In this document: positions 1 through 48,472 of the stretch, in pieces | Layout: each line of letters opens with the position of its first letter | Numbering within the stretch: the first letter of the stretch is position 1 | DNA from: Alphaproteobacteria bacterium | Lineage (GTDB): Bacteria; Pseudomonadota; Alphaproteobacteria; Rs-D84 | Assembly: GCA_009784235.1 (NCBI GenBank) | Contig: WRCC01000002.1 | Location: forward strand, 89,687-153,686 | Length of the DNA: 64,000 nucleotides | Direction: 5' to 3' | Program-made: the position numbers and the translations under genes | Notes under the pieces: generated by a model | Told to the model about the DNA's origin: nothing | What the model saw: only the letters and a program-made list of their open reading frames with translations | Databases searched by the model: none

Positions 1-1
1 T

Positions 2-544
2 TTGCGCTTCTTTTATTTTATTGGTTTCTGCATAAATTTGGCCACGAATAAATGCACGCCAAGAATCATTGCCGCGCAAAGAATCAATAAATTTCAGCGC
101 GGCGGGCGCATTTCCCGTTGCGACCGCTGACCAAATCCGCACGGGCGCGATTAATTGTGAATCATTGTTTTTGAATTTATTATAAAGCGTTTTCCAATCG
201 TCTTTTTGCACCAGATAAGCGGCATAGGCAACCTGGGCGGCCAGACCGGGTTCATTTGCCAAAATGCCGGCTGAATCATCAATTTGGCCGGCAACAAATT
301 TTGCAATCGCGCGACTATTTCGTACAGATGGAATATCAACATTTTGCAGTCGGTCGGCAAACCGTGCGACCGCATTAAAATCATCCACATGCATTGCGTG
401 TTGTGCCGCCAAGAAATTACCGAAATCAGTATCCGGAAATGCCGCACGTGCGGGCATGGCGGAATCATGCGCAACACGTATGCCCAGCGATACAGCTAAT
501 GCCGCCGCGGCCACGAACGACACAATCATACCTGTGCGTTGCAT
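2..544 (-). CDS. Hypothetical secreted protein, N-terminal 181 aa in window; gene continues past position 1
   Basis: Hand translation of the minus frame. ATG at 542-544 gives MQRTGMIVSFVAAAALAVSLG..., a signal-peptide-like N-terminus. No stop was found down to position 2. The frame is absent from the ORF track because it has no in-window stop. The rest is Ala-rich and TPR-like. Confidence 0.4.
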   Translation of the reverse strand, partial: MQRTGMIVSFVAAAALAVSLGIRVAHDSAMPARAAFPDTDFGNFLAAQHAMHVDDFNAVARFADRLQNVDIPSVRNSRAIAKFVAGQIDDSAGILANEPGLAAQVAYAAYLVQKDDWKTLYNKFKNNDSQLIAPVRIWSAVATGNAPAALKFIDSLRGNDSWRAFIRGQIYAETNKIKEAQ

Positions 545-594
545 TGTTTTTATTTCTGGATGTTTTTTTGCAGATGTTTTCATCATATGTTATA

Positions 595-1167
595 ATGATG
601 CAAATGGACATAGAAGTCAAATTTTCAATATATGAAAAAATGCTGCGCGAATGGAATTCGCGGATGAACTTGGTCGCGCCCAGTACTTTGGCCGATGTGC
701 GCATACGCCATATCGATGATTCACTGCAATTGGCGGAATATATTCCAATGAATACGCACGTTATAGATTTGGGCAGTGGCGCTGGATTCCCAGCGGTTGT
801 TTTAGCGATACTTGGGTATAATGTTACATGCATTGAATCAATTTCAAAAAAATGTGCGTTTTTAAATGCGCTGAAATCCGAATTGAATTTGCCGAATTTA
901 ACAATCATAAACGACCGTATTGAAAATTTTGTAAAAACAATGCGCTGCGGCAAATCTGTGGTGTTCACGGCACGCGCATTCGCATCTTTGGAAAAGATTT
1001 TTGATATGACGGGACGCGTCGGCGCACCATACGCTTTGTTAAAAGGTGAAAATATTGACGCCGAAATTACAACTGCGCGCGAAAAATATAAATTTGAAGA
1101 TAGGTTACATCCATCAAAAACTGGACCTGGTTTTATATTTTTATCTGGTCCGGTCAAATTAATATAG
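595..1167 (+). CDS. rsmG: 16S rRNA (guanine527-N7)-methyltransferase RsmG (GidB)
   Basis: HIDDSLQLAEY...IDLGSGAGFPAVVLAI motif region. The ATG at 595 (or 598/604) lies downstream of a TATAAT. The longer ORF from 394 overlaps the divergent gene and is unlikely. Confidence 0.85.
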   Translation: MMQMDIEVKFSIYEKMLREWNSRMNLVAPSTLADVRIRHIDDSLQLAEYIPMNTHVIDLGSGAGFPAVVLAILGYNVTCIESISKKCAFLNALKSELNLPNLTIINDRIENFVKTMRCGKSVVFTARAFASLEKIFDMTGRVGAPYALLKGENIDAEITTAREKYKFEDRLHPSKTGPGFIFLSGPVKLI

Positions 1168-1256
1168 TTTCGCTCGATGCTTCACATCTGCGCGTATCCT
1201 CATGGTTGCTCGAATTTCGCTGTGCTCGTTCTTGCATACTCGGATTCCGGCCGAAT
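1168..1256. repeat. Dispersed ~80 bp repeat R-F, copy 1 (rsmG-parA intergenic)
   Basis: Same as copy 2. 14-mer CTGCGCGTATCCTC is identical. Ends in the T-arm-like CTCGGATTC. Confidence 0.7.
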
Positions 1257-1441
1257 CGCACATTTTTATATGTCATTTTGCCGGCCTTTTTGATGTTTTT
1301 TATCGATTCGGCCGGTAATTTTGAACAACATTATTTTTCATACGAACTTTTTGGTAACTAATTGATTTTCCGCATTTTATAAAAATCTCTTGACCGAATC
1401 GGTCAATAGCGCCATTATTTCATATGAACAAAGGAAGACAA

Positions 1442-2206
1442 ATGGCGAAAATTATTGCATTTGCGAATCAGAAAGGCGGCGTTGGAAAAACCACAACGGC
1501 GATAAATATTGGCGCATCTTTGGCCGCAACAAACAATCGTGTTTTGTTGATTGACCTGGACCCCCAAGGCAATGCCGGTACGGGATTGGGCTTTGTTCGC
1601 AACGCGCATACGCAATCGGTCTACCCGGTGATAATGGGGCGCGAATCGGCTGCAAATAATATACTTTCGACGGCGGTCAAAGGCATGCATATTATGCCGG
1701 CATCAATGCAGTTATCAGGGGCCGAGGTCGAATTGTTAGATGCCGATAACCGCGAATATCGTCTGCGCGATGCCTTGGTGCCGATTGCCAGCCATTATGA
1801 CTATATTTTGCTGGATTGTCCGCCTGCCCTGGGTTTTTTGACTATAAATGCGCTGTGTGCGGCAAAATGGTTGGTTGTGCCATTGCAGTGCGAATTCTTT
1901 GCGCTGGAAGGATTACAGCAATTAATCAACAGCACGCAAAAAATCCGTGAAAAATGGAATCCGGAATTGGAATTACTGGGCGTATTATTAACCATGTACG
2001 ACCGGCGGAATAACCTGTCGCGCGCAATCGAGGACGACGTGCGCACCGCATTCGGCGACAAAGTGTTTAAAACCGTAGTGCCACGGAACGTAAGGGTCAG
2101 CGAGGCACCATCACATGGCCAGCCCGCCCTGTTCTATGATTTTAATTCACCCGGCGCCCAGGCGTATCTGCGGATTGCAACGGAATTAATAGGAGCATCA
2201 TCATGA
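1442..2206 (+). CDS. parA: Chromosome partitioning ATPase ParA/Soj
   Basis: MAKIIAFANQKGGVGKTTTAINIGASLA P-loop. AAGGAAG ribosome-binding site before the ATG at 1442. Positioned between rsmG and parB. Confidence 0.9.
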   Translation: MAKIIAFANQKGGVGKTTTAINIGASLAATNNRVLLIDLDPQGNAGTGLGFVRNAHTQSVYPVIMGRESAANNILSTAVKGMHIMPASMQLSGAEVELLDADNREYRLRDALVPIASHYDYILLDCPPALGFLTINALCAAKWLVVPLQCEFFALEGLQQLINSTQKIREKWNPELELLGVLLTMYDRRNNLSRAIEDDVRTAFGDKVFKTVVPRNVRVSEAPSHGQPALFYDFNSPGAQAYLRIATELIGASS

Positions 2207-3072
2207 GTAAATTTGGACTTGGCAAGGGTTTGGCAGATTTAAAGGCGGAAATGGGTGCACCGGTGGAATTGGGCGTTTTGGCCGGGGGTGAACGCGTTGT
2301 TGTTAAACAAATCTCAATTTCGCAGATTATTCCAAATCCGGACCAGCCGCGTAAAACATTCGCACCGGCCGAATTAAATGATTTGGCGGCATCAATCAAA
2401 GAAAAAGGCGTGTTACAGCCTATTTTGCTGCGCATGGGTAAAAATGGCCAATATGAAATTGTTGCGGGCGAACGGCGTTGGCGCGCATCACAAATCGCCG
2501 GCCTTTCTGACATTCCGGCATTGGTTAAAACTCTGTCGGATTCGAATACGATGGAAATCGCGCTGATTGAAAATGTCCAGCGCGAAAACCTGAACCCGAT
2601 GGAAGAATCGGCCGCGTATGTAAATTTAATTTCGGCCTGTGCGTACCAGATTTCCGACGTTTCACGCATTATTGGCAAATCGGAAAGCTATGTCCGGAAT
2701 ATCATGCGTCTGGACGCCCTGCCTGAATCTGTAAAAGAACTGGTCCGGTCGGGCGAACTGTCATCATCACATGCGCGTGCGATTTTGGTGGCTGAAAACC
2801 CGGCCGAATTAGCAAAAAAGATTCTGGATGCCAAGATATCCGTAAGCGATACTGAAAAAATGGTAAAAAACGTCGCGCGTTCGTCAAGTTCCCGGTCTTT
2901 TCGACCAAATTTGGTCTCGGACAAAGAAATTTGTCAATATCAGAAACAAATTGGCAAAGCAATCGGCGCACCGGTCAAATTCAAAATGCGCAAAGGTGGG
3001 GCAGGGGACATAATCATCCGATTCGAAACCAAAATCCAAATGGATAAATTAATTGAAAAATTATCTAAGTAA
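2203..3072 (+). CDS. parB: Chromosome partitioning protein ParB/Spo0J
   Basis: ParB box IVAGERRWRASQIAG. ATGA overlap with parA. Confidence 0.9.
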   Translation: MSKFGLGKGLADLKAEMGAPVELGVLAGGERVVVKQISISQIIPNPDQPRKTFAPAELNDLAASIKEKGVLQPILLRMGKNGQYEIVAGERRWRASQIAGLSDIPALVKTLSDSNTMEIALIENVQRENLNPMEESAAYVNLISACAYQISDVSRIIGKSESYVRNIMRLDALPESVKELVRSGELSSSHARAILVAENPAELAKKILDAKISVSDTEKMVKNVARSSSSRSFRPNLVSDKEICQYQKQIGKAIGAPVKFKMRKGGAGDIIIRFETKIQMDKLIEKLSK

Positions 3073-3095: not shown

Positions 3096-3440
3096 ATGAG
3101 AAAAATACTACTGTCTACTGTCTGCTGTCTACTGCTTGCCGCGTGCGGTGGGATATCTGCGGGCAAGGGTTCAGAAAATCTGGTTAAATTTAATAACGAA
3201 CCGACAGAATGCAGATTTTTGCATCGCATAGATGTTGATGTGTCGGCTTATAATGCCGAAGATGCGAATCAGTTCCTGCGTAATCGTATCGCGGCGCAAC
3301 CGGTTCACGGCAATGCATACTGGATTGTGTCAGAGCGTACCCGCCGGAACGAAGGCGCAGTATTTGGTCCAAAGAATACGTTCTATTTCACCGCGAATGT
3401 TTATGACTGCCCAAGTTCGGTCTTATATGGCAGGAAATAA
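3096..3440 (+). CDS. Small lipoprotein, paralogue 1
   Basis: MRKILLSTVCCLLLAACGG lipobox. Paralogous to the ORF at 3622..4014. The signal-peptide hydrophobic region is encoded by a CTACTGT heptamer array at 3108..3136. Confidence 0.6.
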   Translation: MRKILLSTVCCLLLAACGGISAGKGSENLVKFNNEPTECRFLHRIDVDVSAYNAEDANQFLRNRIAAQPVHGNAYWIVSERTRRNEGAVFGPKNTFYFTANVYDCPSSVLYGRK

Positions 3441-3445
3441 AATAA

Positions 3446-3566
3446 GTTCCCCTCCTTTGGAGGGGTGTTTTTTACGCGCAGCGTAAAAAATGGGGTGGTT
3501 TACCAAACTATCGGATGCACCGTAAACCACCCCGGCCTGCGGCCACCCCTCCAAAGGAGGGGAACT
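3446..3566. repeat. Palindromic element family P-A (full copy, nested hairpin)
   Basis: GTTCCCCTCCTTTGGAGGGGTG at 3446-3467 pairs with CCACCCCTCCAAAGGAGGGGAAC at 3544-3566. An inner GGGTGGTTTAC / GTAAACCACCC pair sits inside. A related partial copy lies inside mnmG at 35471..35514. Confidence 0.8.
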
Positions 3567-3621
3567 TTGACTTGTTGGAATCATAAAAACATGGTAAAAT
3601 ACAGCCAATAGAGGATTAATT

Positions 3622-4625: not shown

Positions 4626-5435
4626 TTATGCATTTTGCAACAATTTTTGCAAATTTTGCAACGCATCCCAAACATCGCGCTTGGAATCGGGTTTCAGCAG
4701 CATATAGTTCGGGTGCCAGATTGGGATAGTTCGAAATTCGAAATTCGAAATTCGAGATTCGAAAACTTTCCCATGGTCGGTGGGCAGTTTGGCGCTGGCG
4801 ATTTCTGTTGCGGCCAATGTCCCAAGGGTTAAAATTTTTTTTGCGTCGACCAATTCAATCGCGCGATTAACGAACGGTCGGCATAAATCCAATTCTTCGC
4901 GCGATGGCGTGCGTCCGCCTGGTGTTCGCCAGAATAACAATGGAATAATCGTGACCATATTGCGCTTGATTCCAATAGAGGATAACATTTTATCCAATAA
5001 TTCGCCCGCCGCACCCGTCATAATTTTTCCGGCCGCATCGTCGTCAGAAGAGGGCAGGTCGGTGATAATGGTGATTGGTGGTTGGTGCTGGTGGCTGGTG
5101 GTTGAAAATTGTGGTGGTACGAAATTAGCAAATGATGATAATGGATGGTTGTAATTTTTAATTGCGGCGCACAGTGATTCAAAATCCGCGCATGCGGATG
5201 CAGCTGCGTCCGCGGCGTCCAGCGCAGCATTGGTTGGTGTAACGGGAATAGGGGCAACCACAAAATCGCCTGGCGATTTTGTGGAGAGTTTAGAGTTGAA
5301 AGTTGAGATTTGAGAGTCATTGCTGCCTTTATCTAAACTCTTAGCCCTTAACTCTAAACTCTCCGGCGAGGCCGGCTCATCCAACTCCCACTTGATTCCG
5401 GCCAGTGCCAAATCCAACAAAGAATATTTTCCCAT
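4626..5435 (-). CDS. Uracil-DNA glycosylase family 4 (phage-polymerase-associated type) with N-terminal extension
   Basis: GxAGELLDKML...VTIIPLLFWRTPGGRTPSREELDLCRPFVNRAIEL...IWHPNYML motifs. ~120 aa low-complexity N-terminal extension. Contains TTCGAAA heptamer array H2. Confidence 0.7.
   Translation of the reverse strand: MGKYSLLDLALAGIKWELDEPASPESLELRAKSLDKGSNDSQISTFNSKLSTKSPGDFVVAPIPVTPTNAALDAADAAASACADFESLCAAIKNYNHPLSSFANFVPPQFSTTSHQHQPPITIITDLPSSDDDAAGKIMTGAAGELLDKMLSSIGIKRNMVTIIPLLFWRTPGGRTPSREELDLCRPFVNRAIELVDAKKILTLGTLAATEIASAKLPTDHGKVFESRISNFEFRTIPIWHPNYMLLKPDSKRDVWDALQNLQKLLQNA
4730..4764. repeat. Heptamer tandem array H2 (TTCGAAA x5) inside the UDG coding sequence
   Basis: ttcgaaa ttcgaaa ttcgaaa ttcgaga ttcgaaa. 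Translated in frame as FESRISNFEFRT. The reverse-complement array lies in mrcA at 53821..53855. Confidence 0.85.
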
Positions 5436-5962: not shown

Positions 5963-6015
5963 ATAGGGGCGCATACTTGCGCCCTTTTGTTTTGGGCGCG
6001 AATACGCGCCCCTAC
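5963..6015. repeat. Palindromic element family P-C (intergenic copy, double hairpin)
   Basis: ATAGGGGCGCATACTTGCGCCC ttttgtttt GGGCGCGAATACGCGCCCCTAC. Two internal hairpins plus an outer TAGGGG/CCCCTA pairing. Copies also lie in metG (7493..7538) and mnmG (34925..34990). Confidence 0.8.
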
Positions 6016-6137: not shown

Positions 6138-6199
6138 CAATTTGGGATGAAAGATGAATGTTTCATCTTTCGCCCTTTTATTTTTTTACGGGTGAAATT

Positions 6200-7957
6200 A
6201 TGGCCAAAAAATACCTTATATCTTCTGCATTACCTTATGTGAACAATATTCCACATATCGGGAATTTTGTGGGCAGTGTTTTGCCCGCCGATGTATATGC
6301 GCGGTTTATGCGCGCGCGTCATGGTGCGGAAAATGTCTTGTTTGTATGCGGCGCGGACGCGCACGGCACGCCGATTATTGTCAGCGCGAAAAAAGAGAGT
6401 ATGTCGGTCGAAGCATTAGTTGAAAAATACCACGCGATGCATTCCAAGATTTTTAATGATTTCAAAGTTTCTTTTGATGGTGGATATGGTTCGACACATA
6501 CGGAATTGCAGACAAAATTGGTTCATGATTTATTTACTGCGCTGGATAAAAATGGATTTGTCGAAGAAAAGACTACAATTCAGCCATTTTCAATCGATGA
6601 TAATATGTTTTTGGCTGACCGCCAGATAGAAGGTACTTGCCCGAAATGCGGCGACCCGCGTGCACGCGGCGACCAGTGTGATAAATGTGGCGAACTGCTG
6701 GACCCGGCGGATTTGATAAATCCATGTGTTGCGGATACAGGCAGCAAAAACATCGAAATGCGGGAAACAAAAAATCTTTTTTACCGTGCAGATTTGGTCA
6801 AAGATGACGTGAAAAAATGGGTTTTGGATACGGCCGAAAAAAATAAATGGTCACCGTCCGCGATTTCCGCCACGAAAAAGTATTTAACCGAAGATGTGCC
6901 AAATCCGTCGATTACACGCGATTTGCCATGGGGAATTCCGGTGAATAAACCCGGATATGAAAATAAAGTATTTTATGTCTGGTTTGATGCGCCATGGGGC
7001 TATATCTCGATTTCACAAGCAGCGCGACCAATCGCGCCGGAGCAAGGCGAAGGCGGAGAATCGCGCCGTAGCGATAGTGTAGGCGGATGGGCGGATTGGT
7101 GGCATGGCGGTGATAATTGCCATTATGCGCAATTTATGGGCAAAGATAATATAAAGTTTCATTCGCTGTTTTTCCCGGGGCAAGAGATTGCATGGCGGGA
7201 CGGAAATTGGAAAAAAGTCGATTTGTTAAAAGGACTTAATTTCCTGAATTTCGAAGGCGCGAAGATTTCAAAGTCCGCGGGTCACGGAATATTTTTGGAC
7301 GCGGCATTGGTGGATGCGCCGTCGGATGCATGGCGTTATGCTTTGATGGCAAGCGCGCCCGAAAGCGATGATACAGATTTCACAATCCAGCGATTTGCGG
7401 ATATCGTGAACAAAGACCTGAACGGGATGCTGGGCAATTTTGTGTCGCGTGCAACGAAATTGAGCGAGAAAAATTTTGGGAATACAGTTCCCGTAGGGGC
7501 GCATAGTTGCGCCCCAGGGCGCGAATACGCGCCCCTACGGGAATTGGAACAATCAATCAATTTCCGTCTGGCTGAATTAACTGATGCGTTGGAATCTTGC
7601 GAATTTCGTAAATCCGTGAACGCTTTGCGCGAATTATGGGCCGTCGGAAATGAATTTATGGCGAAAATGGAACCGTGGTCTATGGTCAAAAACGGCGATA
7701 TAGATGGTGCGGCGGCGGTTCTGAATGAATGTTTCCAATTGATAGATTTATATGCACGCGTATCTGCGCCGTTCATACCGGATGCAGCGACAAAAATGCA
7801 AAATATATTCGGCACTAAACGCGATTTGTCATGGCCGATTGAATACGAGCGCCGTGTTGAATCCGGCGAATTGTTCACCATTCCGGAAAACCTTTTTGAA
7901 AGAATCGACACCGATAAGGTCGAAAGCATGACCGCGAAATATGTTAAAAAATCATAA
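6200..7957 (+). CDS. metG: Methionyl-tRNA synthetase
   Basis: ISSALPYVNNIPHIGNFVGSVLPADVYARF class-I HIGH region. Zn-binding CPKCG...CDKCG knuckle. Carries an in-frame P-C palindromic insertion at 7493..7538 encoding VGAHSCAPGREYAPLR. Confidence 0.9.
   Translation: MAKKYLISSALPYVNNIPHIGNFVGSVLPADVYARFMRARHGAENVLFVCGADAHGTPIIVSAKKESMSVEALVEKYHAMHSKIFNDFKVSFDGGYGSTHTELQTKLVHDLFTALDKNGFVEEKTTIQPFSIDDNMFLADRQIEGTCPKCGDPRARGDQCDKCGELLDPADLINPCVADTGSKNIEMRETKNLFYRADLVKDDVKKWVLDTAEKNKWSPSAISATKKYLTEDVPNPSITRDLPWGIPVNKPGYENKVFYVWFDAPWGYISISQAARPIAPEQGEGGESRRSDSVGGWADWWHGGDNCHYAQFMGKDNIKFHSLFFPGQEIAWRDGNWKKVDLLKGLNFLNFEGAKISKSAGHGIFLDAALVDAPSDAWRYALMASAPESDDTDFTIQRFADIVNKDLNGMLGNFVSRATKLSEKNFGNTVPVGAHSCAPGREYAPLRELEQSINFRLAELTDALESCEFRKSVNALRELWAVGNEFMAKMEPWSMVKNGDIDGAAAVLNECFQLIDLYARVSAPFIPDAATKMQNIFGTKRDLSWPIEYERRVESGELFTIPENLFERIDTDKVESMTAKYVKKS
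7493..7538. repeat. P-C palindromic element inserted in-frame in metG
   Basis: GTAGGGGCGCATAGTTGCGCCCCAGGGCGCGAATACGCGCCCCTAC with extended flanks ttccc.../...gggaa. Near-identical to the intergenic copy at 5963..6015. Confidence 0.8.
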
Positions 7958-8492
7958 ATCAGAAATCATAAATCAGAAATTAGTTTTAATGTCATGTTGT
8001 GCGCCATGCAGCGCCGGTGCGATTGAGCAATTAAAAGGGCAGGGTGCAGATTTTTGCATCTTGTTTTACAACCCCAATATTTTCCCCGATACCGAATATC
8101 AAAAACGCCTTGCGGAACAAATAAAATTATGCGAATTGCTGGGCGTAAAATATCATGTCGGGGATTACAATCATGACGAATGGTTAAATTGCGTGCGCAG
8201 CATGGAAAATGAACCAGAACGGGGGTTGCGTTGCAGCGAATGTTTCAAAATGCGAATCAAATGGGGCGCGGATTGGGCACGTGCAAATGGATATGATGCA
8301 ATTGCGACCGTATTCGGCGTGTCGAAACATAAAGACCAAGCGCAAGTTGATGCCGCGGCACTTGCCGCTATTTGCGATTTAGAATATATCCCAATCAATA
8401 ACCAACCACCGCTACCCGCCACCAGTCACCAGAAGTTCTATCGCCAAAATTATTGCGGCTGTGAATACTCGATGAAAAAAAACGTGGGATAA
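7941..8492 (+). CDS. queH: Epoxyqueuosine reductase QueH (DUF208)
   Basis: LVLMSCCAPCSAG N-terminal motif. YRQNYCGCEYS at the C-terminus. Start uncertain: 7941 overlaps metG, or 7989. Confidence 0.65.
   Translation: MLKNHKSEIINQKLVLMSCCAPCSAGAIEQLKGQGADFCILFYNPNIFPDTEYQKRLAEQIKLCELLGVKYHVGDYNHDEWLNCVRSMENEPERGLRCSECFKMRIKWGADWARANGYDAIATVFGVSKHKDQAQVDAAALAAICDLEYIPINNQPPLPATSHQKFYRQNYCGCEYSMKKNVG
7949..7983. repeat. Heptamer tandem array H1 (AAATCAK x5) at the metG-queH junction
   Basis: aaatcat aaatcag aaatcat aaatcag aaattag. Contains the metG TAA stop at 7955-7957. Lies within the putative 5' end of the next ORF. Confidence 0.85.
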
Positions 8493-10548: not shown

Positions 10549-10620
10549 GTAGGAAGTTTGAAGGTTGAAGTAGGAAGATTATTAATAATTTCTTCAAGCC
10601 TCAACCTTACTACTTCAAAC
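10547..10620. repeat. Long imperfect inverted repeat with AAGTTTG-like motifs, likely a terminator after fabG
   Basis: GTAGGAAGTTTGAAGGTTGAAGTAGGAAGA...TCTTCAAGCCTCAACCTTACTACTTCAAACTTT. The motif matches heptamer family H4. Confidence 0.5.
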
Positions 10621-10626
10621 TTTATT

Positions 10627-12750: not shown

Positions 12751-13204
12751 TATTCTTCTTGAAATCTTCCAGGCTGACAATTCTTTTTTCATCCGCTGTG
12801 GGTGATTTATCGCCGACCAGGGGTAATTCCAAATCATTTCCTGCACGTTGAGTCTTGGGATGAAATTGCATCATAAAATCGGTCGATGGGTCCTTGAACT
12901 CCATCAGTGAATCGTATGGAATTCGGATATAAAACGGCCGACCATCGAATGTCAGTGTTACGCCGAATTCATTTTCCGCAACGTTCAGGTTCGAAAAAGA
13001 ATGCTGCAAAACAATCGTCATCATTTCTGGATATCGCATCCGCAAAAAATCAGGAATAACAACGCCTGCGTCGCGCGTGCGGAACGTGATATAAAAATGC
13101 GTCCCATCGCCCAGGCCGTTGATTTGCGCATATCGCAGCGCATCGCGCACTACATTCATCAATGCGCCGTCCAGTAATTGTTTGTAATCAAGCTTTGGTG
13201 CCAT
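12743..13204 (-). CDS. sspB: ClpXP adaptor SspB (alphaproteobacterial type)
   Basis: LDGALMNVVRDAL...HFYITFRT...YPEMMTIVLQHSF...FGVTLTFDGRP...FKDPSTDF matches the SspB family pattern. Confidence 0.65.
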   Translation of the reverse strand: MAPKLDYKQLLDGALMNVVRDALRYAQINGLGDGTHFYITFRTRDAGVVIPDFLRMRYPEMMTIVLQHSFSNLNVAENEFGVTLTFDGRPFYIRIPYDSLMEFKDPSTDFMMQFHPKTQRAGNDLELPLVGDKSPTADEKRIVSLEDFKKNKK

Positions 13205-13210: not shown

Positions 13211-14257
13211 TTATTGCTGAATCGTACCGGCGGTGCAACCAATAAATATAGCATTCGGTACACCGATAAAAGATTCTGGTTCAATGCCAGTCATCCACAC
13301 TTGGGCATCTGCTTTGCCCAGTTCCATAAACAAGTGCGTGCGCGCATTTTTATCCAGATGCGCGGCAACTTCGTCCAGTAATATTATGGGTGATTTGCCG
13401 GTTTTGGCACGAATTAACTTCGCATGTGCGATTGATAGTGCCAGCAAGGCGGATTTCTGCTGGCCTGTTGATGTCATTGCCACAGGCATATCCAGCGCAG
13501 CATTAAACATACCGAAATCAGTTCGATGTGCACCATCGATATTCATTTTATCCGCGACCAGAAACCGATTCGCCGCCAAATATTCCGCGTATTCGCGTTC
13601 TGTGTTCGCAGACATATTTTGTTCCAGCCAACCAGAAATCGATATCGCGTAATTTTCCAAGAAATAATTAATTTCGCCCGCGTATGTCACGCGCGCGGCG
13701 GCGATGGCGGTTGCTGCACTTGCAATTTGTGCATCCAGTCCGGCAATCCAATTATTATCTGCGCGGCTTTTCAGCGCAAATGTTCGTTCGGATAATAATT
13801 TGGAAAGTCGTGCAGTGCGCCCAGAATGCGCCGGGTCAAACCCGGCCACCAATCGGTCAAAGAAAGCCCGCCGGTCGGACGCAGTTTCAACAAACAGTCG
13901 GTCTTCGCGCGGTGTAATCCAGATTATACGCAAATGCCGCGCCAAATCTGATAATGGCACTGCATCGCCGTCAATCATTACACGCCGCCGCGCATCGCCA
14001 TTTGTCCACGACACGGATATATTTGTTTCATTATCCAATTCCGCAACAACACCAAAATCATTTGCACCGATTTGAACCAGTTCCGCTGGGGCGCCACCAC
14101 GCAGTGTTCCGGATGCGGACATAATGCTGACTGCTTCCAGAATACTGGTCTTGCCGCTGCCGTTCGGGCCAGTGACAACAATATTCTTTGCGTCCGATGT
14201 TTTTATCCGGCTGGCCGAATGATTACGAAAATTGGAAAATGTCAGGACAGAAATCAT
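13211..14257 (-). CDS. recF: DNA replication and repair protein RecF
   Basis: MISVLTFSNFRNH start. VVTGPNGSGKTSILEAVS Walker A. ABC/SMC-like C-terminal region. Confidence 0.85.
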   Translation of the reverse strand: MISVLTFSNFRNHSASRIKTSDAKNIVVTGPNGSGKTSILEAVSIMSASGTLRGGAPAELVQIGANDFGVVAELDNETNISVSWTNGDARRRVMIDGDAVPLSDLARHLRIIWITPREDRLFVETASDRRAFFDRLVAGFDPAHSGRTARLSKLLSERTFALKSRADNNWIAGLDAQIASAATAIAAARVTYAGEINYFLENYAISISGWLEQNMSANTEREYAEYLAANRFLVADKMNIDGAHRTDFGMFNAALDMPVAMTSTGQQKSALLALSIAHAKLIRAKTGKSPIILLDEVAAHLDKNARTHLFMELGKADAQVWMTGIEPESFIGVPNAIFIGCTAGTIQQ

Positions 14258-14269
14258 AATAAAAAACAG

Positions 14270-14343
14270 TGGAGGCCTGGGTCGGAATCGAACCGGCATA
14301 GACGGATTTGCAATCCGCTGCATAACCACTCTGCCACCAGGCC
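14270..14343 (-). tRNA. tRNA-Cys (anticodon GCA)
   Basis: GGCCTGG...TTGCAAA anticodon loop. Discriminator U + CCA. Near-identical to E. coli tRNA-Cys through the anticodon and T arms. Confidence 0.85.
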
Positions 14344-14442
14344 ACCGTTGGCATAACATAGGGCATTAAACCCTACTTTTCAACTTAAAAATTTCTGGAA
14401 ATTCGTTTTTTATGATATAATATTCAAGCCGAGAGAATTTTC

Positions 14443-22805: not shown

Positions 22806-23885
22806 ATGGGAATTCTTAACAAATATTTCACAAAACAATTGGCGGCGTTTTTTATAATGCTGATGCTGGTATTGGCGGGATTGGCTTGGATGATGCAGAT
22901 TTTGACCATGCTGAAATTCTTGGTCCAATACGGTATTGATTTATGGGGATTTCTGGGCCTGACCATTTTAATGATTCCGTTCATCATATCCATCATTATG
23001 CCGTTTGTAATATTTATTGCGGTTTTGTTTATTTATAACAAGTTTATCGCAGACCGTGAAATTACCACAATGGCGGCCAGTGGCATATCGCCATTTCGTA
23101 TTGCAATGCCGGCAATCAAGTTGGCCGCGGTTATGACCGCAATACATTTGGCGCTGAATATTTGGATTGTGCCGGCGACCCAAGTAAAGTTTTATGATAC
23201 CCAATGGGAAATGCGATATGGATTGGCGCACTTGAAATTACAAGAAGCCACGTTCACACAAATGGCACCGGGTTTGGTTGTATTTGTTGAAAATGTTGCC
23301 GGACATGATTTGTCGAATTTAATGCTTTATGATAATCGTGGCGCGCGCGGCCAGATGGTTATTACGGCCGAAAAAGGCAAATTGGTGAATACTATCCGCG
23401 GTCTTTCGATTGTGATGAGTGGCGGCAGTATTCAGTACAGAGATGATAATTTCACCGTCGGAACATTTGATACATTTGATATGGATATGAATATGGCCGA
23501 CCGCGGCCAGAACAATGCGTTCCGCGTGCGTCGGGTATCAACCGGTGATTTAATCAGTTTGGCCGCGCACCCAAAAGGTTTATCGCCGCGCGAATTAAAA
23601 TCGATTATGGCCGAAGTTACGGCACGGTTCTTGGGTCCATTGATGAACATAATTTTGGTGCTTATTTGTATGGTTTTCATGTTAAAAACGTCACTGCTGC
23701 GCCGGGCCAGTTTTAATATGGCTGCACCGATGGCCGTGGGTGCAATGGCGGTGGCACAAACCGGATTTATGGCGATGTCGGATGCCGTTTTGGCGGTGCC
23801 GCATATATTAACACTGGGGGCCGCACAGATTATTGCAATCATAATGCTGTTTTACATATTGAAAAGTGACAGATTCCAATCATGA
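22806..23885 (+). CDS. LPS export ABC permease LptF/LptG family
   Basis: YjgP/YjgQ-type six-TM permease (KYFTKQLAAFFIMLMLVLAGLAWMMQ...). ATGA overlap with lptD. Confidence 0.75.
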   Translation: MGILNKYFTKQLAAFFIMLMLVLAGLAWMMQILTMLKFLVQYGIDLWGFLGLTILMIPFIISIIMPFVIFIAVLFIYNKFIADREITTMAASGISPFRIAMPAIKLAAVMTAIHLALNIWIVPATQVKFYDTQWEMRYGLAHLKLQEATFTQMAPGLVVFVENVAGHDLSNLMLYDNRGARGQMVITAEKGKLVNTIRGLSIVMSGGSIQYRDDNFTVGTFDTFDMDMNMADRGQNNAFRVRRVSTGDLISLAAHPKGLSPRELKSIMAEVTARFLGPLMNIILVLICMVFMLKTSLLRRASFNMAAPMAVGAMAVAQTGFMAMSDAVLAVPHILTLGAAQIIAIIMLFYILKSDRFQS

Positions 23886-25912
23886 AAAAATTAATCTATG
23901 CCTTATGCATTACGCCTTATGCCTTGGCTGCGCAAGCAGGCCTTATCGATATGAATGTGCCCAAAACAATTGTTGCAGAAAAAGTCGAATATGACGTACG
24001 TACACGGTCGGTTCAAACAAAGGGCGATACAACTGTATCAAATGAAACGGGCCAGCGTATGACATTGCGTGACGCATATATGGATGAAACCGGATTGCGC
24101 GCTGGCGGCGGAAATTTGGATTTAATACTGGGCTATCGCACGCGTGTGACGGCGCGGACTTTGCACAAAGATGCGCATATCACGACCGCCGAAGATGCGA
24201 CATATACCGCGTGTTATGCATGTGATGTCGATGTTAATGCCTGGGAAATATCCGCATCAGAATTCCGGCATGATAACGAGGCGCATTTGATGCATTTTGA
24301 TAATCCAGTATTTTGGGCGTATGGATTGCCGATATTTTGGGCGCCGTATTTGTCATATCCAGACCCGACGATTAAGCGCAAAAGTGGCTTGCTGATGCCG
24401 TATATGAACACAACAAATCAAATGGGAACCCAGTTTAATTTTCCGCTGTATTTGGCATTTTCGGATTATCATGACGCAACGTTGACGTCATCTTATCTGA
24501 CGGCTGAAAATCCATTATTTCAATTGGAACATCGATTGAATTATGACCGGTCGTCGTTCCGTACAACCGGGTCTTTTACCAAGAACAGGGAAGGGGACGA
24601 GCGATGGCATATATTCAACAAAGACCTGATTGAAATGGGCGACAATGTTCGCGCAAATGTTTTTGTTGAACGTACATCGGATAAATTATACCTGCAAAAA
24701 TATGGATTTTATGATTCGCGGCCGTATTTGGATTCCGGTGCGCGTGTCGAAGTATTTGGCGAATCCGCGTACGTTGTGGCCGACGCACACATATTCCAAG
24801 AACTTCGTTCAACGCCGTACAGCAATGTTTCAAATCCGTCCGGCGATATTTTGCCGAATATTCGCGGAACATTGCAATCAGACCCATTTTGGATGGATAC
24901 TTATTTTACATTAACCGGCGATATTATTGGAATCAGCAATATGGATAACAATGCCGCGGCACAGCGTATGCTGGGTATTGCGCGGGTCACATCGCCATGG
25001 ACGATATGGCTTGGTCAAAAATTAACATTGTCCGCGTCTGTTCGATATGACGTTTATCATTTTATGAATACAGATATGTTGGATGGTACGACAGACTTTA
25101 CGGGCGTGCGTGCACGGTTTTTGCCATCTGGTTATGCCGATTGGTCGTGGCCGTTTATGAAATCTGGCGATGATTGGATTCATGTCGTGGAACCACGTGT
25201 GCGTGTTACGGTAAAAAATACACTCGATTCGCCGGCGTTTGCGAATATCGATTCGTCGGGTTCGTTATTATCCGATGCAACTTTGTTTGCGGATAATCGT
25301 TTGTCCGGTTATGACTTGTGGGAAAACGGCAGCTATATAGATTACGGTATGGGATGGACGGCTTATTCAAATGATGCGATAACGCTGTCTGCGTTCGCCG
25401 GCCAATCGTATGATTTCGCACCGCCAATTGATTTGGACCCGAATTCCGGATTCCATGATGGCGCATCTGATTATGTTGGACGGTTGTCAGCGGATTATCG
25501 CGGATTGCTTTCTGTAAATAACCGGTTCCGATTCGCACAACGAGATTTGACATTGCGTCACCTTGAATCAGTCGGTAAAATCGGTGGACGCAATTATGTC
25601 GAAGTTGGGTACATCCGCGCGACACAATTATTGGACGCGGTTACAATTGATAAAGTTAATAACGAAATTGTCGGCGGGTTCGGCATTGGATTTACCGAAC
25701 GGTTGTCATTACAGGCACGCACGATATACAACGTGACCGATAATCGTATTCAACAGCAAAGTGCCAGCTTGTATTACGACCATCCGTGTTATATAGTCCA
25801 GCTGGGCTATTCCAAAGACGGCGCGGTTCGGTATAATGTTGATGGTTCAAACTATGTTGGCCGTACGACATTCCATCTGCGGTTTGCTTTGAAGATTACA
25901 GAAACTAAATAG
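23882..25912 (+). CDS. lptD: LPS assembly outer-membrane protein LptD
   Basis: Signal peptide. OstA N-terminal domain. Large beta-barrel C-terminal domain (OstA_C-like). Gene order lptF-lptD-surA. Confidence 0.8.
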   Translation: MKKLIYALCITPYALAAQAGLIDMNVPKTIVAEKVEYDVRTRSVQTKGDTTVSNETGQRMTLRDAYMDETGLRAGGGNLDLILGYRTRVTARTLHKDAHITTAEDATYTACYACDVDVNAWEISASEFRHDNEAHLMHFDNPVFWAYGLPIFWAPYLSYPDPTIKRKSGLLMPYMNTTNQMGTQFNFPLYLAFSDYHDATLTSSYLTAENPLFQLEHRLNYDRSSFRTTGSFTKNREGDERWHIFNKDLIEMGDNVRANVFVERTSDKLYLQKYGFYDSRPYLDSGARVEVFGESAYVVADAHIFQELRSTPYSNVSNPSGDILPNIRGTLQSDPFWMDTYFTLTGDIIGISNMDNNAAAQRMLGIARVTSPWTIWLGQKLTLSASVRYDVYHFMNTDMLDGTTDFTGVRARFLPSGYADWSWPFMKSGDDWIHVVEPRVRVTVKNTLDSPAFANIDSSGSLLSDATLFADNRLSGYDLWENGSYIDYGMGWTAYSNDAITLSAFAGQSYDFAPPIDLDPNSGFHDGASDYVGRLSADYRGLLSVNNRFRFAQRDLTLRHLESVGKIGGRNYVEVGYIRATQLLDAVTIDKVNNEIVGGFGIGFTERLSLQARTIYNVTDNRIQQQSASLYYDHPCYIVQLGYSKDGAVRYNVDGSNYVGRTTFHLRFALKITETK

Positions 25913-25921: not shown

Positions 25922-26755
25922 ATGAAGAAATTATTGTGGACTTTTTACTTTTTACTTTTTGCTGTGCCTGCAAATGCAGGTACAGTTGTTGCATCCATAA
26001 ACGGTACGCCGATTACGGATACGGATGTGACCGCGCGCACGCGACTGATGTCTTTCCAAGGGCAATCCGGAACGGATAATCGCCGCCGCGCGCTATCGAA
26101 TATTATCGATGACCATATTAAATTGGCATACGCGGAAAGCATGCGCATTGTCCCAGCGGACAGCGATGTAAAAACTGAATTCGAAGGCATTCAGCGCAGC
26201 GGGTTTGACGCATCAAAATTGACGGCCAGTGATACTGCAATGCTGACCACCGCTGTGCGTGCTAATATCGCGTGGCAAATGGTAATTGGTCGCACAATTA
26301 TGCCAACCATTGATGTTACCGATGAAGACATTGCGACCGAACGCCGTGAATTGGCCCGTGAACGCGGATTGCCGATTGAAATGACATTTATTCGCCTGGT
26401 TGATATACCAACGGATGTTGCATCGCGTCTGACGCGCCCATCATCTTGTGACGGCGCGATGGATATGGCGCGTGATTTGGGTGGCTGGCCACAGCGTATG
26501 ACTGTGCTGCAATACGAATTGTCTGCGGATGTGCGCACCGTTTTGGTTGATTTGGCGCCGATGACTTGGTCGCGCCGGATTGATGGCAATGTATTCTTGG
26601 TATGCAGCACAAAAAGAACCAAAGAATGGGGACAATTGGACGACATTATAAAACAAAACGCGATGTTTCGCCGTGCATCATTCCAAGCAGACCAGCAATT
26701 AAAACAATTGCGCCGCCGCGCAGTAATAGTAATCACTGATGACAGATATAAATAA
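25922..26755 (+). CDS. SurA N-terminal-domain chaperone-like protein (no obvious PPIase domain)
   Basis: Signal peptide. SurA_N-like region (INGTPITDTDV...). Short at 277 aa. Position downstream of lptD. Confidence 0.55.
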   Translation: MKKLLWTFYFLLFAVPANAGTVVASINGTPITDTDVTARTRLMSFQGQSGTDNRRRALSNIIDDHIKLAYAESMRIVPADSDVKTEFEGIQRSGFDASKLTASDTAMLTTAVRANIAWQMVIGRTIMPTIDVTDEDIATERRELARERGLPIEMTFIRLVDIPTDVASRLTRPSSCDGAMDMARDLGGWPQRMTVLQYELSADVRTVLVDLAPMTWSRRIDGNVFLVCSTKRTKEWGQLDDIIKQNAMFRRASFQADQQLKQLRRRAVIVITDDRYK

Positions 26756-33924: not shown

Positions 33925-34086
33925 TTGGTTTTCTCCATATAAAAGTTAATTTTATGCAGAGAAAAATCATTCAATTCTGCGCGAATATTTTGCGCACAAC
34001 AGAATAATCTTTATCCCTGCGAACGCTATTATAGACATTTGAAATCGGATTATCAAGCACAGATGGAAAATTTAATTTTTAACTTT

Positions 34087-34112
34087 TCATTTTTGATTTT
34101 TCATTTATGATA
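34087..34112. repeat. Heptamer array H1 (reverse orientation, ATTTNTG x4) just upstream of rnpA
   Basis: atttttg atttttc atttatg at... Confidence 0.6.
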
Positions 34113-34117: not shown

Positions 34118-34465
34118 GTGAGAAACACGATAAAACAACATAAAGACTTCCTGATACCGGACGATGCGCCGCGCTTTGTCACGGATTTTTTTATCGTAAA
34201 ATCGCGCCCGACAAAATGGCCGAATGACGCACGATATGGTTTGACGGCGACAAAAAGAACATTCAAATTGGCGCATGACCGCAATCGTGCAAAGCGTCTG
34301 GTTCGTGCATGGCTGCGCGAATGCGAATCTTTGATGTCGCCGGAAATGGATTATGTTTTTATTATGCGTGCACCGATTCTGGTCGCGAAAAAACCCGATG
34401 GTATCGCGCAAATTACGCGCGCACTGAAAAGGCTAGCCATTATTGGTGCGCCGAACCCGGCGTAA
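34118..34465 (+). CDS. rnpA: RNase P protein component
   Basis: KRTFKLAHDRNRAKRLVRAWLRE core motif. GTG start at 34118. Not preceded by rpmH. The 3' end overlaps the mnmG 3' end convergently by ~33 bp. Confidence 0.75.
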   Translation: MRNTIKQHKDFLIPDDAPRFVTDFFIVKSRPTKWPNDARYGLTATKRTFKLAHDRNRAKRLVRAWLRECESLMSPEMDYVFIMRAPILVAKKPDGIAQITRALKRLAIIGAPNPA

Positions 34466-36280
34466 AATATTTATAATGCCCGCGGGCGTTATGCCTGGAA
34501 TACGTGATAATGCGGCGATTGTTTCCGGACGCGCGGCCGATAATTTTTCTTTCAGTTCATTGGTCAATCCGGACATTGCAGCATAATCAAAACCCATCGG
34601 AATTTTAATATCTTTATCGCGGTTATATCGTTCAATTTCACGTTGCGCCCGCGCAATATATCCAGCGTAAAATCTATCATTTTGATTTATGATTTCGGCC
34701 TTTTCAGCGATATTTTTTTCATAATGTTCGCCTGTAATCAATCCGGCTGCAACCGCCATTGGTCCCAGGCGCGTGATTGCATTATCCGCGCGCAGGCTCA
34801 ATCGGTATTCCGCGCGGGATGTGAACATTCGATAAGGTTCATCTACGCCCAGCGTCGTAATATCATCGATTAGTACACCGATATATGAATTGGTTCGGTC
34901 GATTTGTAGGGGTGCGCACCCACCCATTGAAATCGCAGATTTCAATGGGACCCGGGATTCGCGCCCCAGGGCGCAAGTATGCGCCCCTACAAAAGCCGCG
35001 GCGTTCGCACCCGCGACGATACCTTGGGCTGCGGCTTCTTCGTACCCCGATGTACCATTAATTTGCCCAGCGAAAAATAATCCCGGAATGTCTTTGGATT
35101 CCAATGTTGACTTTAACACACGCGCATCAATCGCATCGTATTCGATTGCATATCCATATCGTTCGATACGGGCGTTTTCCAGGCTTGGAACACTGCGAAT
35201 AAATTTATCTTGGACTGCCGCGGACATACTGGTCGATAAACCATTTGGATAAATTAATTTGCCATTTGCTGTCTCTGGCTCCAAAAATATTTGGTGTGAA
35301 CTGTGTTCTGGGAATCGCATAACTTTGTCTTCCAAGGATGGGCAATACCGCGGCCCGGTACCAACAATTTCACCGTTATACATCGGCGCGTCGGTAATAG
35401 TATCGCGAATAATTTGGTGCGTTTCAGATGTAGTGCGGGTGATATAGCAATTGGTCGGTCCAAAGTTTGGGTAAACCACCCCGCCCTTTGGGCATCCCTC
35501 CAAAGGGGGGGAACTAAACCACGGATGATTCGTATCCCCTGGCTGTGCCTCGCACACCGAAAAGTCAATACTGTCCGCATAAATACGCGCGGGTGTTCCG
35601 GTTTTCAGACGTAATAATTTGAATCCGGCGCGTTCAAGCGTCGCGGAAATATTTTTATCGGCCGTCTGATATGTGCCGTCGTCTTGCAATCGGCCAGATT
35701 CGATTTTTTCGCATCCGCGATGGACCAAACCCCGCAAAAAAGTCCCGGTCGTAATAACAATTGCCGTCGCACGATATTTTCCGTTTATGATTTTGTTTTC
35801 GATATCCAAAGTTTCGACGGATTCATAAATTATTTCGGGATAGACTATATCTCCCCCTCCTTGAGGGGGGCCGTCTGCGAAGCAGATCGGGGGGAGCTCC
35901 CCCTCGTCGCCCTTTGGGCGACACTCCCCCTCAAGGAGGGGGAGATATAGTCCGAGCAGATTTTTCACTGCATCCCGATACTTATCCCGATCGATTTGTG
36001 CGCGTAATGCCTGGGTCGCGGGGCCGTGCGAAGCATTTAAAACACGGAAATGAATACCGGCCATATCGGCGGCACGCGGCATTATTCCGCCCAAGGCGCC
36101 CAATTCCGCAACCAATTGCGATTTTCCAGGCCCACCAATCGATGGATTGCAAGACAGCGCGCCCAAATCATCCGGCGATTTGGTCAAAAGCAGGGTGGCC
36201 GCACCCATACGTGCTGCTGCCGCGGCTGCTTCGACCCCGGCATGTCCGCCGCCAATAACAATTACATCAAATTCTTTCAT
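34433..36280 (-). CDS. mnmG: tRNA uridine-5-carboxymethylaminomethyl synthesis enzyme MnmG (GidA)
   Basis: MKEFDVIVIGGGHAGVEAAAAAARMG FAD motif. GPRYCPSLEDKVMRF. Carries three in-frame palindromic-element insertions (P-C, P-A partial, P-B). Confidence 0.9.
   Translation of the reverse strand: MKEFDVIVIGGGHAGVEAAAAAARMGAATLLLTKSPDDLGALSCNPSIGGPGKSQLVAELGALGGIMPRAADMAGIHFRVLNASHGPATQALRAQIDRDKYRDAVKNLLGLYLPLLEGECRPKGDEGELPPICFADGPPQGGGDIVYPEIIYESVETLDIENKIINGKYRATAIVITTGTFLRGLVHRGCEKIESGRLQDDGTYQTADKNISATLERAGFKLLRLKTGTPARIYADSIDFSVCEAQPGDTNHPWFSSPPLEGCPKGGVVYPNFGPTNCYITRTTSETHQIIRDTITDAPMYNGEIVGTGPRYCPSLEDKVMRFPEHSSHQIFLEPETANGKLIYPNGLSTSMSAAVQDKFIRSVPSLENARIERYGYAIEYDAIDARVLKSTLESKDIPGLFFAGQINGTSGYEEAAAQGIVAGANAAAFVGAHTCALGRESRVPLKSAISMGGCAPLQIDRTNSYIGVLIDDITTLGVDEPYRMFTSRAEYRLSLRADNAITRLGPMAVAAGLITGEHYEKNIAEKAEIINQNDRFYAGYIARAQREIERYNRDKDIKIPMGFDYAAMSGLTNELKEKLSAARPETIAALSRIPGITPAGIINILRRVRRTNNG
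34925..34990. repeat. P-C palindromic element (variant) inserted in-frame in mnmG
   Basis: CCCATTGAAATCGCAGATTTCAATGGG + GCGCCCCAGGGCGCAAGTATGCGCCCCTAC. Encodes VGAHTCALGRESRVPLKSAISMGGCAP, compared with VGAHSCAPGREYAPLR in metG. Confidence 0.75.
35471..35514. repeat. P-A palindromic element (partial) inserted in-frame in mnmG
   Basis: GTAAACCACCCCGCCCTTTGGGCATCCCTCCAAAGGGGGGGAAC. Encodes SSPPLEGCPKGGVVY in the FS...CYIT loop. Confidence 0.75.
35846..35950. repeat. P-B palindromic element (105 bp) inserted in-frame in mnmG
   Basis: TATATCTCCCCCTCCTTGAGGGGG...CGTCGCCCTTTGGGCGAC...CCCCCTCAAGGAGGGGGAGATATA. Encodes ~35 extra residues (LPLLEGECRPKGDEGELPPICFADGPPQGGGDI). Confidence 0.8.
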
Positions 36281-36443
36281 GGGGGTAAATATATAATAAA
36301 AAAACTGGAAATCCATAAAAACTTGTACTATAATTGGCGCTATGTACAACAAGAACATAATTATTAGAGGATAACTGGCAGACGCGCTTTGCAGTTATTC
36401 CTGTGGGCGCATCGGCGTCCATTTTTTTATCAAAGGCATCAAA

Positions 36444-40242: not shown

Positions 40243-40393
40243 CTGTCATTGCGAGGAACATAGTGACGAAGCAATCCAATAAATAATATACTTGTTCATT
40301 ATAATGGACATCACATCTATGTTTTAAAGTTGTCTGCTATAGTAGACAACTTTTTAAATTACTGGATTGCTTCGCATGCGCTCGCAATGACAG
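40243..40393. mobile_element. MITE-like element (family P-D)
   Basis: ~35 bp terminal inverted repeats CTGTCATTGCGAGGAACATAGTGACGAAGCAATCCA / TGGATTGCTTCGCATGCGCTCGCAATGACAG flank an AT-rich 85 bp core. The core contains palindrome AAGTTGTCTGCTATAGTAGACAACTT. No coding capacity. Confidence 0.6.
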
Positions 40394-41626: not shown

Positions 41627-41708
41627 TTATGATTTCTGATTTATGATTTATGGTTGCATAGGCTGATACAGCGTCAAACCAAATCATAAATCAGAAATCA
41701 GAAATCTT
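41625..41708. repeat. Inverted pair of H1 heptamer arrays at a same-strand gene junction
   Basis: atttatg atttctg atttatg atttatg (41625-41652), 27 bp near-palindromic spacer, then aaatcat aaatcag aaatcag aaatctt (41681-41708). Contains the permease ATG and the thioesterase stop. Confidence 0.85.
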
Positions 41709-48347: not shown

Positions 48348-48352
48348 GAATT

Positions 48353-48445: not shown

Positions 48446-48472
48446 AAAAAACCGCCGATTGGCGGTTTTTAT
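48446..48472. terminator. Bidirectional terminator
   Basis: AAAAAACCGCCGATTGGCGGTTTTT. Confidence 0.7.

Follow-up and report, generated by a model that had tools for sequence, protein, structure and literature searches.

Dispersed heptanucleotide repeats have been known since about 1990, and we know of no accepted origin or function for them. The STRRs (short tandemly repeated repetitive sequences) of heterocystous cyanobacteria, described by Mazel et al. in 1990, are said to consist of the units CCCCAGT, TTGGTCA or CAACAGT, and Vioque reportedly found STRRs in 1997 inside a housekeeping gene as well, that for RNase P RNA, in a helix that tolerates them. Inverted pairs are on record for the heptamer families, whose function and origin are given as unknown (PMC4692102, PMC4679880). 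Here, heptamer arrays were analysed in a 64,000-nucleotide stretch of an alphaproteobacterial genome (contig WRCC01000002.1, positions 89,687 to 153,686; hereafter the window). The host is an uncultured gut alphaproteobacterium, a relative of Candidatus Enterousia known from metagenomes only, and was judged from its closest relatives to live in the termite gut. A preliminary description of the window had listed six in-frame arrays in the genes UDG, mrcA, ileS, rluD and suhB. These arrays are probably what survives in coding regions from a spread of heptanucleotide repeats specific to this lineage, a spread that would have proceeded by slippage and templated copying and been filtered by selection.

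Heptamer arrays in five enzyme genes

All six arrays were present in intact open reading frames (ORFs). Tandem Repeats Finder (TRF) reported the array of the family-4 uracil-DNA glycosylase (UDG) gene (4626-5435, minus strand) at 4730-4764, with unit TTCGAAA, 5.0 copies and 92% matches; the coding strand reads (TTTCGAA)x5. The mrcA gene for PBP1A (53280-55496, minus strand) carries a TTCGAAT array at 53821-53852 (4.6 copies, 100% matches; (TTCGAAA)x4.6 on the coding strand). The ileS array at 38439-38463 (gene 36444-39515, plus strand) has 3.6 copies of a GACAGTA rotation. On the minus strand, rluD contains two arms, arm 1 at 60669-60696, which is (GACAGTA)n in sense, and its inverted partner arm 2 at 60575-60600, which is (TACTGTC)n in sense. 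In suhB (48472-49185, minus strand), an AAGTTTG array with 5.0 copies and 100% matches, a perfect (CAAACTT)x5 on the coding strand, occupies 48656-48690; its start had been given correctly, but it reaches beyond the end formerly set at 48683.

The arrays are translated within their host proteins, as the preliminary description had said, and the peptides quoted there match the ORF translations. The UDG array encodes VFESRISNFEFRT (quoted peptide FESRISNFEFRT), the mrcA array NRNSKFEIRNSNI (quoted peptide NRNSKFEIRNSNID) and the suhB array QTSNFKLQTSNF (quoted peptide QTSNFKLQTSNFR). The ileS array encodes ETVDSRQS, and the rluD arms yield PTVDSRQLTV (PTVDSRQLTVK in the ORF translation) and SLLSTDYCLP, respectively. 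Host proteins were assigned with Pfam: PF03167 for UDG, Transgly and Transpeptidase for mrcA (class A penicillin-binding protein), tRNA-synt_1 and Anticodon_1 for ileS, PseudoU_synth_2 for rluD (RluD-type pseudouridine synthase) and Inositol_P for suhB (SuhB/inositol monophosphatase).

An assembly artefact was rejected on two grounds. A second assembly covers 12.7 kb of the region with 8 substitutions and 0 gaps; the arrays at 41625, 41681 and 48656 have the same copy numbers there and no indels, the mrcA array at 53821 lying outside this coverage. Furthermore, four related loci from other samples showed the same phenomenon with other units. The suhB region of the window was also found on a contig of JGI metagenome 3300010882.

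In alignments with close orthologues and solved structures, every coding array in an enzyme fell in a segment of hypervariable sequence and usually also of hypervariable length. The UDG array lies between the invariant HG and IPIWHPNY (orthologue and PDB alignment). In the AlphaFold2 (AF2) model, it forms a beta-hairpin with a predicted local distance difference test score (pLDDT) of about 96, and the N-terminal arrays of the same protein are disordered (pLDDT <50). The suhB array fills the hypervariable loop ahead of the conserved TGCPALDLA motif. This loop has 15 residues, 12 of them array-encoded, and is 2 residues shorter than in the two closest orthologues. The mrcA array is placed in a variable loop of the transpeptidase domain, which has 6 more residues than in Enterousia-like orthologues and 1 more than in L122, a related locus described below. 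The ileS array sits in the loop opening the anticodon-binding domain and aligns with the corresponding loop of the isoleucyl-tRNA synthetase structure 8C9D with a 2-residue difference. The two rluD arms lie in the two variable segments on either side of the conserved S4 core, arm 1 in a hypervariable S4-domain loop (pLDDT about 70, AF2 model) and arm 2 in the linker joining the S4 and catalytic domains (pLDDT 50-66).

Over the five genes, the net change in loop length was about -2 to +6 residues, compared with 8-12 residues encoded per array. These lengths suggest that the arrays mostly replaced resident loops instead of lengthening them. The preliminary description had taken the arrays for insertions or expansions giving duplicated peptides and had proposed a comparison with orthologues. 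That comparison located the sites in variable loops, and its lengths point to replacement; plain insertion that duplicates a peptide is not supported.

Three copies of a heptamer expose it to every one of the three reading frames; an array can therefore persist in an ORF only if its strand is stop-free. Every coding array with at least three copies was found in a stop-free orientation, and the opposite strands of the suhB unit and of the SurA and LptD signal-peptide units (see below) would yield TGA or TAA. GACAGTA is the only unit with a stop codon in sense (TAG). The sense GACAGTA arrays of ileS and rluD share one frame (TVDSRQ), and each ends right where an in-frame TAG would fall. Array lengths are not multiples of three and the frame is nevertheless kept, as had been pointed out, with conserved sequence continuing in frame on both sides. 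Because the orientations are stop-free throughout and the GACAGTA arrays are truncated before TAG, the selection that had been proposed on the basis of frame maintenance is confirmed.

The arrays had also been called a liability or a switch. Gain or loss of one unit shifts the frame, as can be read directly from the sequence, and in contingency loci such slipped-strand changes would frameshift the genes reversibly. For the window this is very improbable. The genes are housekeeping, single-copy and mostly essential, tracts have only 3-5 units, copy numbers are equal in two assemblies that are otherwise 8 single-nucleotide polymorphisms apart over 12.7 kb, and protein clusters had no length variants. 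Moreover, spacers and signal peptides contain the same arrays, at positions that imply no switch. The switch is thus unsupported; a frame-shift liability is possible in principle.

Recurrence and turnover of heptamer units

A strict array definition yielded 7 period-7 arrays in the window, where 100 second-order Markov simulations averaged 0.01, which rules out chance; under the same definition, the window had no arrays of periods 6 or 8-12. TRF placed 25 of its 65 rows at period 7, and these collapse to about 17 loci. The arrays of the five genes first described are real but belong to a larger set, whose units recur outside genes. Arrays are sited in loops of proteins and in a disordered linker, encode parts of four signal peptides, and are also found at gene boundaries and in spacers. 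Within genes, they take up only sites almost free of sequence constraint. By a rough count, 12 of 17 loci are coding and 5 are wholly or partly intergenic; with spacers estimated at roughly a tenth of the window, this would amount to an intergenic enrichment.

Recurrence of units was examined on the 64 kb and on short related loci. GACAGTA was found at 3 unlinked loci and TTCGAAA, AAGTTTG, ACTTTTT and AAATCAK at 2 each. This gives 7 coincident unit pairs among the 17 loci versus 0.23 expected, a number reached in 0 of 20,000 simulations. Such a pattern can hardly be explained by native seeds that slipped locally and independently, each at its own site, without copying between loci. Many bacteria have an excess of heptamer simple sequence repeats (SSRs) for which slippage has been held responsible (Mrazek et al. 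2007, summarised in PMC4679880 and PMC4692102), and in viral contigs every heptamer triple scanned was far above a rough random expectation based on an assumed collection size. However, the recurrence across unlinked loci is far beyond chance, array-plus-flank copies and inverted partners exist (see below), and loop lengths do not grow as expansion predicts.

Relatives were sampled as 80 species-representative loci retrieved via MrcA. The nearest of them, L122 (metagenome-assembled genome Nt197P3bin78, 74% identity), was the only one with a period-7 excess. Array density per 10 kb was 1.4 in the window, 4.6 in L122 and roughly 0 in about 70 Enterousia-like loci. The arrays of L122 are mostly inverted pairs, with a repertoire partly different from that of the window. 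Three further related metagenome loci (L202, L203 and L204) were also array-positive; three of the four positive relatives come from JGI samples and one from ENA. L202 was likewise tested for the period-7 excess and, like L122, had it. The heptamer excess is confined to a small clade.

Within this clade, the same loops hold different units. In the UDG loop, the array of the window is (TTTCGAA)n, that of L202 (TCTGAAC)n and that of L203 (TATGCCT)n; in the SuhB loop, the window has (CAAACTT)5 and L204 has (ATTTTCA)4. L122 has in-frame arrays of its own in a UvrD-like helicase and at the N-terminus of a 768-residue protein, the latter a 24-residue insertion relative to the window. Because sibling loops hold different heptamers and L122 has its own in-frame arrays, the repeat process appears to be ongoing and independent in each genome, and selection would steer it to the same tolerant sites. 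Some unit classes are shared: TATGCCT, found in the LptD signal peptide of the window, also occurs in L122 and in L203, there in the UDG loop, and the ACCACCA/ACCAGCC class of the UDG array at 5069-5104 forms an inverted pair in L122. Orthologous loops in alignable housekeeping proteins thereby serve as natural before-and-after comparisons. Read in this way, siblings suggest that arrays overwrite sequence, turn over quickly and pass a filter for frame and stop codons.

The UDG gene holds two more TRF loci, both on the minus strand: the N-terminal inverted pair of degenerate AACTCTA type at 5283-5364, in the disordered linker and followed by a small palindrome (ACAAAATCGCC..GGCGATTTTGT), and the imperfect ACCACCA/ACCAGCC-type array at 5069-5104, in a segment of variable length before the catalytic core. 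Array-encoded hydrophobic cores were found in four signal peptides (3096-3150, 23882-23940, 25923-25985 and, on the minus strand, 61309-61250). These are a lipoprotein with (CTACTGT)x3.9 at 3108-3134 (plus strand; core MRKILLSTVCCLLLAAC; ORF 3096-3440), LptD with (TATGCCT)x4.1 at 23897-23925 (plus strand; MKKLIYALCITPYALAAQA; ORF start 23882), a SurA-like protein with (ACTTTTT)x3 at 25940-25960 (plus strand; MKKLLWTFYFLLFAVPANA; ORF start 25923) and the product of the ORF starting at 61309, with (ACTTTTT)x5 in sense at 61265-61300 (minus strand; MKKTYLLFTFYFLLFAVANA).

At gene boundaries, (AAATCAT/AAATCAG)x4.6 at 7949-7980 (plus strand) covers the metG stop codon and the queH leader. An AAATCAK inverted pair at 41625-41706 (minus strand) joins an acyl-ACP thioesterase gene and lolC/E: the distal arm supplies the last residues and stop codon of the thioesterase, and the proximal arm runs as far as the lolC/E Shine-Dalgarno sequence and ATG. 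Downstream of fabG, a GAAGTTT array of the suhB unit class lies with its inverted partner at 10553-10622 (plus strand). Two degenerate arrays, to which no strand was assigned, are (AAATCAA)x4.7 at 59823-59855, across the rluD 3' end and the next spacer, and (TTTAATT)x5 at 34071-34106 in the pnp-rnpA spacer. All of these boundary and spacer loci were taken from TRF.

Other features of the window were recorded alongside. The metG coding sequence contains a 29-nt tandem duplication at 7030-7087 (2.0 copies, 79% matches). An Rfam tRNA at 14273-14343 (minus strand) overlaps the 5' end of the mechanically called recF-like ORF 13211-14359, so the true start of this ORF must be downstream. Positions 1-3072 carry rsmG (gidB), parA and parB, with mnmG further on at 34-36 kb; the replication origin is probably close to this locus.

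Inverted pairs, proposed copying and alternative origins

Inverted array pairs with predicted hairpins were found at four loci of the window (z = -3.4 to -5.4), two of them intragenic, and also in L122 and L202. The rluD pair has a predicted hairpin of -37.6 kcal/mol (z = -4.8) and the 41625-41706 pair one of -32.6 kcal/mol (z = -5.4); z was -3.7 for the UDG pair at 5283-5364 and -3.4 for the pair at 10553-10622. TTCGAAA arrays are self-complementary, with stems that reach into the flanks (UDG 4730-4764 with flanks, z = -4.2). The suhB and ileS arrays are single, unstructured and without a partner. The 49-70 nt between the rluD arms are native S4-domain coding sequence conserved across all orthologues, and the L202 UDG pair flanks 87 nt of native sequence; hence these pairs were not inserted as single elements. 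Instead, a second permissive site close by appears to have received an inverted copy of one arm. L202 and L203 also have the UDG N-terminal pair at the orthologous position, but both of its arms have a changed unit there. Intragenic invertons were considered and rejected: inverting the inter-arm sequence of six intragenic pairs gave meaningless peptides, with stops in two, and the native orientation is conserved.

Three cases were retained as evidence for copying. The queH and lolC leader arrays are identical over 25 nt. The signal peptides of the SurA-like protein and the 61309 ORF both read TFYFLLFAV.ANA, and the DNA that they have in common is the array plus GCTGTG..GCAAATGC. In L202 UDG, a 63-nt block occurs twice (1089-1151 and 1710-1772, 94% identity), one copy in the N-terminal linker and one in a catalytic-domain loop. 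The block consists of a heptamer array, a small palindrome (ACAAAATCGC...GCGATTTTGT) and GTGGTTCC, and its duplication is direct evidence of an array copied along with its flank. Flank likenesses between ileS and rluD and between the lipoprotein and rluD were rejected as proof of copy-paste, the sequence being native, A-rich and conserved in orthologues.

The proposed mechanism has three steps. Replication slippage in a 7-nt register would make and resize arrays. Short-patch templated copying would then spread a limited unit repertoire by ectopic conversion between arrays, and template switching to a nearby inverted template would write the inverted partner, replacing sequence with little change in length. 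Finally, purifying selection would remove products that shift the frame, introduce stops or hit constrained residues. The array-encoded peptides would then be passengers, and the arrays would not act as expression switches for their host genes.

Several points weigh against this mechanism. Replacement by templated copying is deduced from loop lengths in relatives no closer than 90% nucleotide identity, and the recurrence of units could reflect selection for a recognised motif. The perfect suhB and mrcA arrays, the hairpins that reach flanks outside the TTCGAAA arrays, and the UDG N-terminal pair, which keeps its complementarity while its unit changes, could each mean a function or a structure-specific enzyme instead of neutral passengers. 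The two assemblies compared for copy number may come from related samples. The model also leaves the period of 7 without explanation; the summary in PMC4679880 has Mrazek et al. attribute the heptamer bias to the polymerase footprint. A clade-specific, sequence-programmed process might alternatively overwrite DNA with heptamer arrays, often as hairpin pairs, from a small heritable template repertoire, and write other units time and again over the same tolerant loops of sibling genomes. Such a dedicated repeat-writing or homing system, or a heptad-recognising nucleic-acid-binding system with sites reaching into coding DNA, in place of generic slippage, is unlikely.

GACAGTA arrays were also followed in broader metagenomes, where a scan returned more than 120 contigs with GC contents of 31-73%. 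(GACAGTA)3 lay inside a long open frame at about 9 of about 120 loci, always in the stop-free orientation. In control scans of viral contigs, (GACAGTA)3 had 7 hits, two scrambled heptamers had 19 and 7, and TAACTGA had 115. Since scrambled heptamers match as often or more, GACAGTA is not special by abundance, and the idea of a universally favoured unit was rejected.

High-GC metagenome contigs contain a conserved element of about 110-130 nt, in up to three copies per 15 kb, with the layout (GACAGTA)n, GAAAAACCTTCG, variable, GTGTCGGCGTCAGC, variable, ACGCGGAGCGC, (TACTGTC)n. Copies were located at L034:5126-5263, 7838-7941 and 12899-13030, and also in L041, L074, L086, L108, L005, L075, L119 and others. 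The element could be a leader RNA or REPIN-like. RNAalifold on 16 soil-element copies recovered the pairing of the arms only, with no covariation, and no Rfam family matched the arrays or the metagenome elements.

The arrays and hairpins might instead be functional cis-elements, modules for an RNA- or DNA-binding factor that tunes translation or mRNA stability, as in the post-transcriptional network put forward for TAACTGA repeats; selection would then favour them inside coding sequence. Many arrays are indeed placed at start codons, stop codons and leaders, the AAATCAK arrays ahead of queH and lolC are nearly identical, z values of -3.4 to -5.4 mark strong hairpins, the two arms of the UDG N-terminal pair change together from genome to genome, and metagenome (TACTGTC)n arms often end 3-15 nt ahead of ATG; the same placement was reported by MacGregor 2015 (PMC4679880). 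On the other hand, sibling genomes have entirely different units at one and the same loop, which leaves no conserved gene-specific signal. Furthermore, the suhB and ileS arrays have neither structure nor partner, about 70 relatives run the same genes array-free, and no candidate binding factor was identified. Only a small probability is given to cis-elements. In several of the 30 arm pairs of the metagenome contigs, the right arm stops a few nucleotides before ATG.

Arrays could also be the terminal inverted repeats of miniature mobile elements of REPIN/MITE type, served by a transposase elsewhere (e.g. RAYT-type) and inserted in frame like Rickettsia palindromic elements (RPEs). Arms of 25-35 nt with spacers of about 15-100 nt recur in the window, L122 and L202, and 30 of 120 metagenome contigs have the paired architecture, in every case with the GACAGTA arm first, then a spacer and the TACTGTC arm; several share a conserved spacer. 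The rotation GTAGACA contains GTAG, which we take to be the tetranucleotide at the feet of REP sequences, and this is a lead only. However, the inter-arm sequences of rluD and L202 UDG are native and conserved, many arrays stand singly, target-site duplications were not observed, and Pfam detected no transposase (Y1 transposase included) or reverse transcriptase among about 55 ORFs of the window. Mobile elements are accordingly rated as quite doubtful.

Three palindrome families were noted separately from the arrays. One, based on CCCCCTCCTTGAGGGGG, has three copies at 35843-35952, 39799-39898 and 3444-3567, with arms of 24-29 nt and spacers of 42-76 nt. The first two are in frame in mnmG (34433-36358, minus strand) and nth (39512-40240), respectively; in Pfam, the mnmG GIDA domain is matched in two stretches, and the nth HhH-GPD match takes 170 residues for 108 profile positions. 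By analogy, these copies resemble RPE insertions. The second family (TAGGGGCGCATA..GCGCCC / GGGCGCGAATACGCGCCCCTA) is found at 7485-7546, in frame in metG (6158-7957) between the catalytic and anticodon-binding domains of methionyl-tRNA synthetase, and at 5964-6014, adjoining a tRNA gene. A similar palindrome lies at 26-114 of L202. The third, an inverted repeat on CGAAGCAATCCAGTGAATAGTAA, occupies spacers beside suhB/pagL (48351-48447) and nth/lolC (40267-40374).

Comparison with known repeat systems

The spread of heptamers proposed here belongs with the dispersed heptanucleotide repeats, namely STRR, TAACTGA, GGGAATC and the heptamer long SSRs. With the long SSR, STRR and GGGAATC types of Xanthomonas and Nostoc it has in common tandem 7-nt units, few copies per site, dispersal, several families per genome, inverted pairs and a period-7 excess; sites close to start codons are a further trait shared with the dispersed heptamer repeats. 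The units of the window differ from theirs, and the host is a gut alphaproteobacterium. In particular, TTCGAAA, GACAGTA, AAGTTTG, AAATCAK, ACTTTTT and TATGCCT in an alphaproteobacterium are not STRRs in the strict sense. Moreover, described heptamer families are reported to be mainly intergenic and under-represented in ORFs, whereas 12 of 17 loci in the window are coding and in frame.

TAACTGA repeats of Beggiatoaceae, Cyanobacteria and Bacteroidetes (MacGregor 2015) are similar in having 2-6 copies per set, many just upstream of start codons, and an orientation in ORFs that is limited by the unit's own stop codons, as for GACAGTA in the window. In contrast to that system with its one dominant unit, the window has at least 5 recurring units, with arrays embedded in conserved enzymes and signal peptides; the window census contained no TAACTGA arrays.

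SSR contingency loci likewise have tandem repeats inside ORFs with a unit that is not a multiple of three. They differ in gene class, in tract length, in the absence of observed length variation here and in the presence of the same repeats at non-switch sites. UDG, PBP1A, IleRS, RluD and SuhB are not dispensable surface, virulence or restriction-modification proteins, and such tracts should not be annotated as phase-variable from sequence alone.

The two-arm hairpin of REP/REPIN elements is present at four loci of the window and in L122 and L202. In template-switch mutations, the reverse complement of a neighbour replaces sequence, which leaves inverted repeats and little change in length (PMC8794818, PMC5941160). 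Template switching is a mechanism and not a repeat family, and its role in the window is suggested by the geometry of the pairs.

RPEs are a parallel in outcome to the arrays described here: they too are alphaproteobacterial repeats found in frame in unrelated housekeeping genes, at sites compatible with fold and function (PMC10969869). The window arrays share this in-frame presence at permissive sites. However, RPEs are conserved palindromes of about 100-150 bp inserted whole, whereas single arrays of the window have 20-35 nt and appear to overwrite loops, their arms can flank native sequence, and no insertion of a whole unit of about 100-150 bp was seen among them. RPE-like palindromes are present in the window as well, in the mnmG, nth and metG genes. 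Comparisons of sibling genomes make it possible to approach the origin of heptamer repeats, which has long gone unexplained, and the mechanism can be tested by comparative genomics. As with RPEs in Rickettsia, essential proteins can have their surface loops and signal peptides remodelled when repeats spread.

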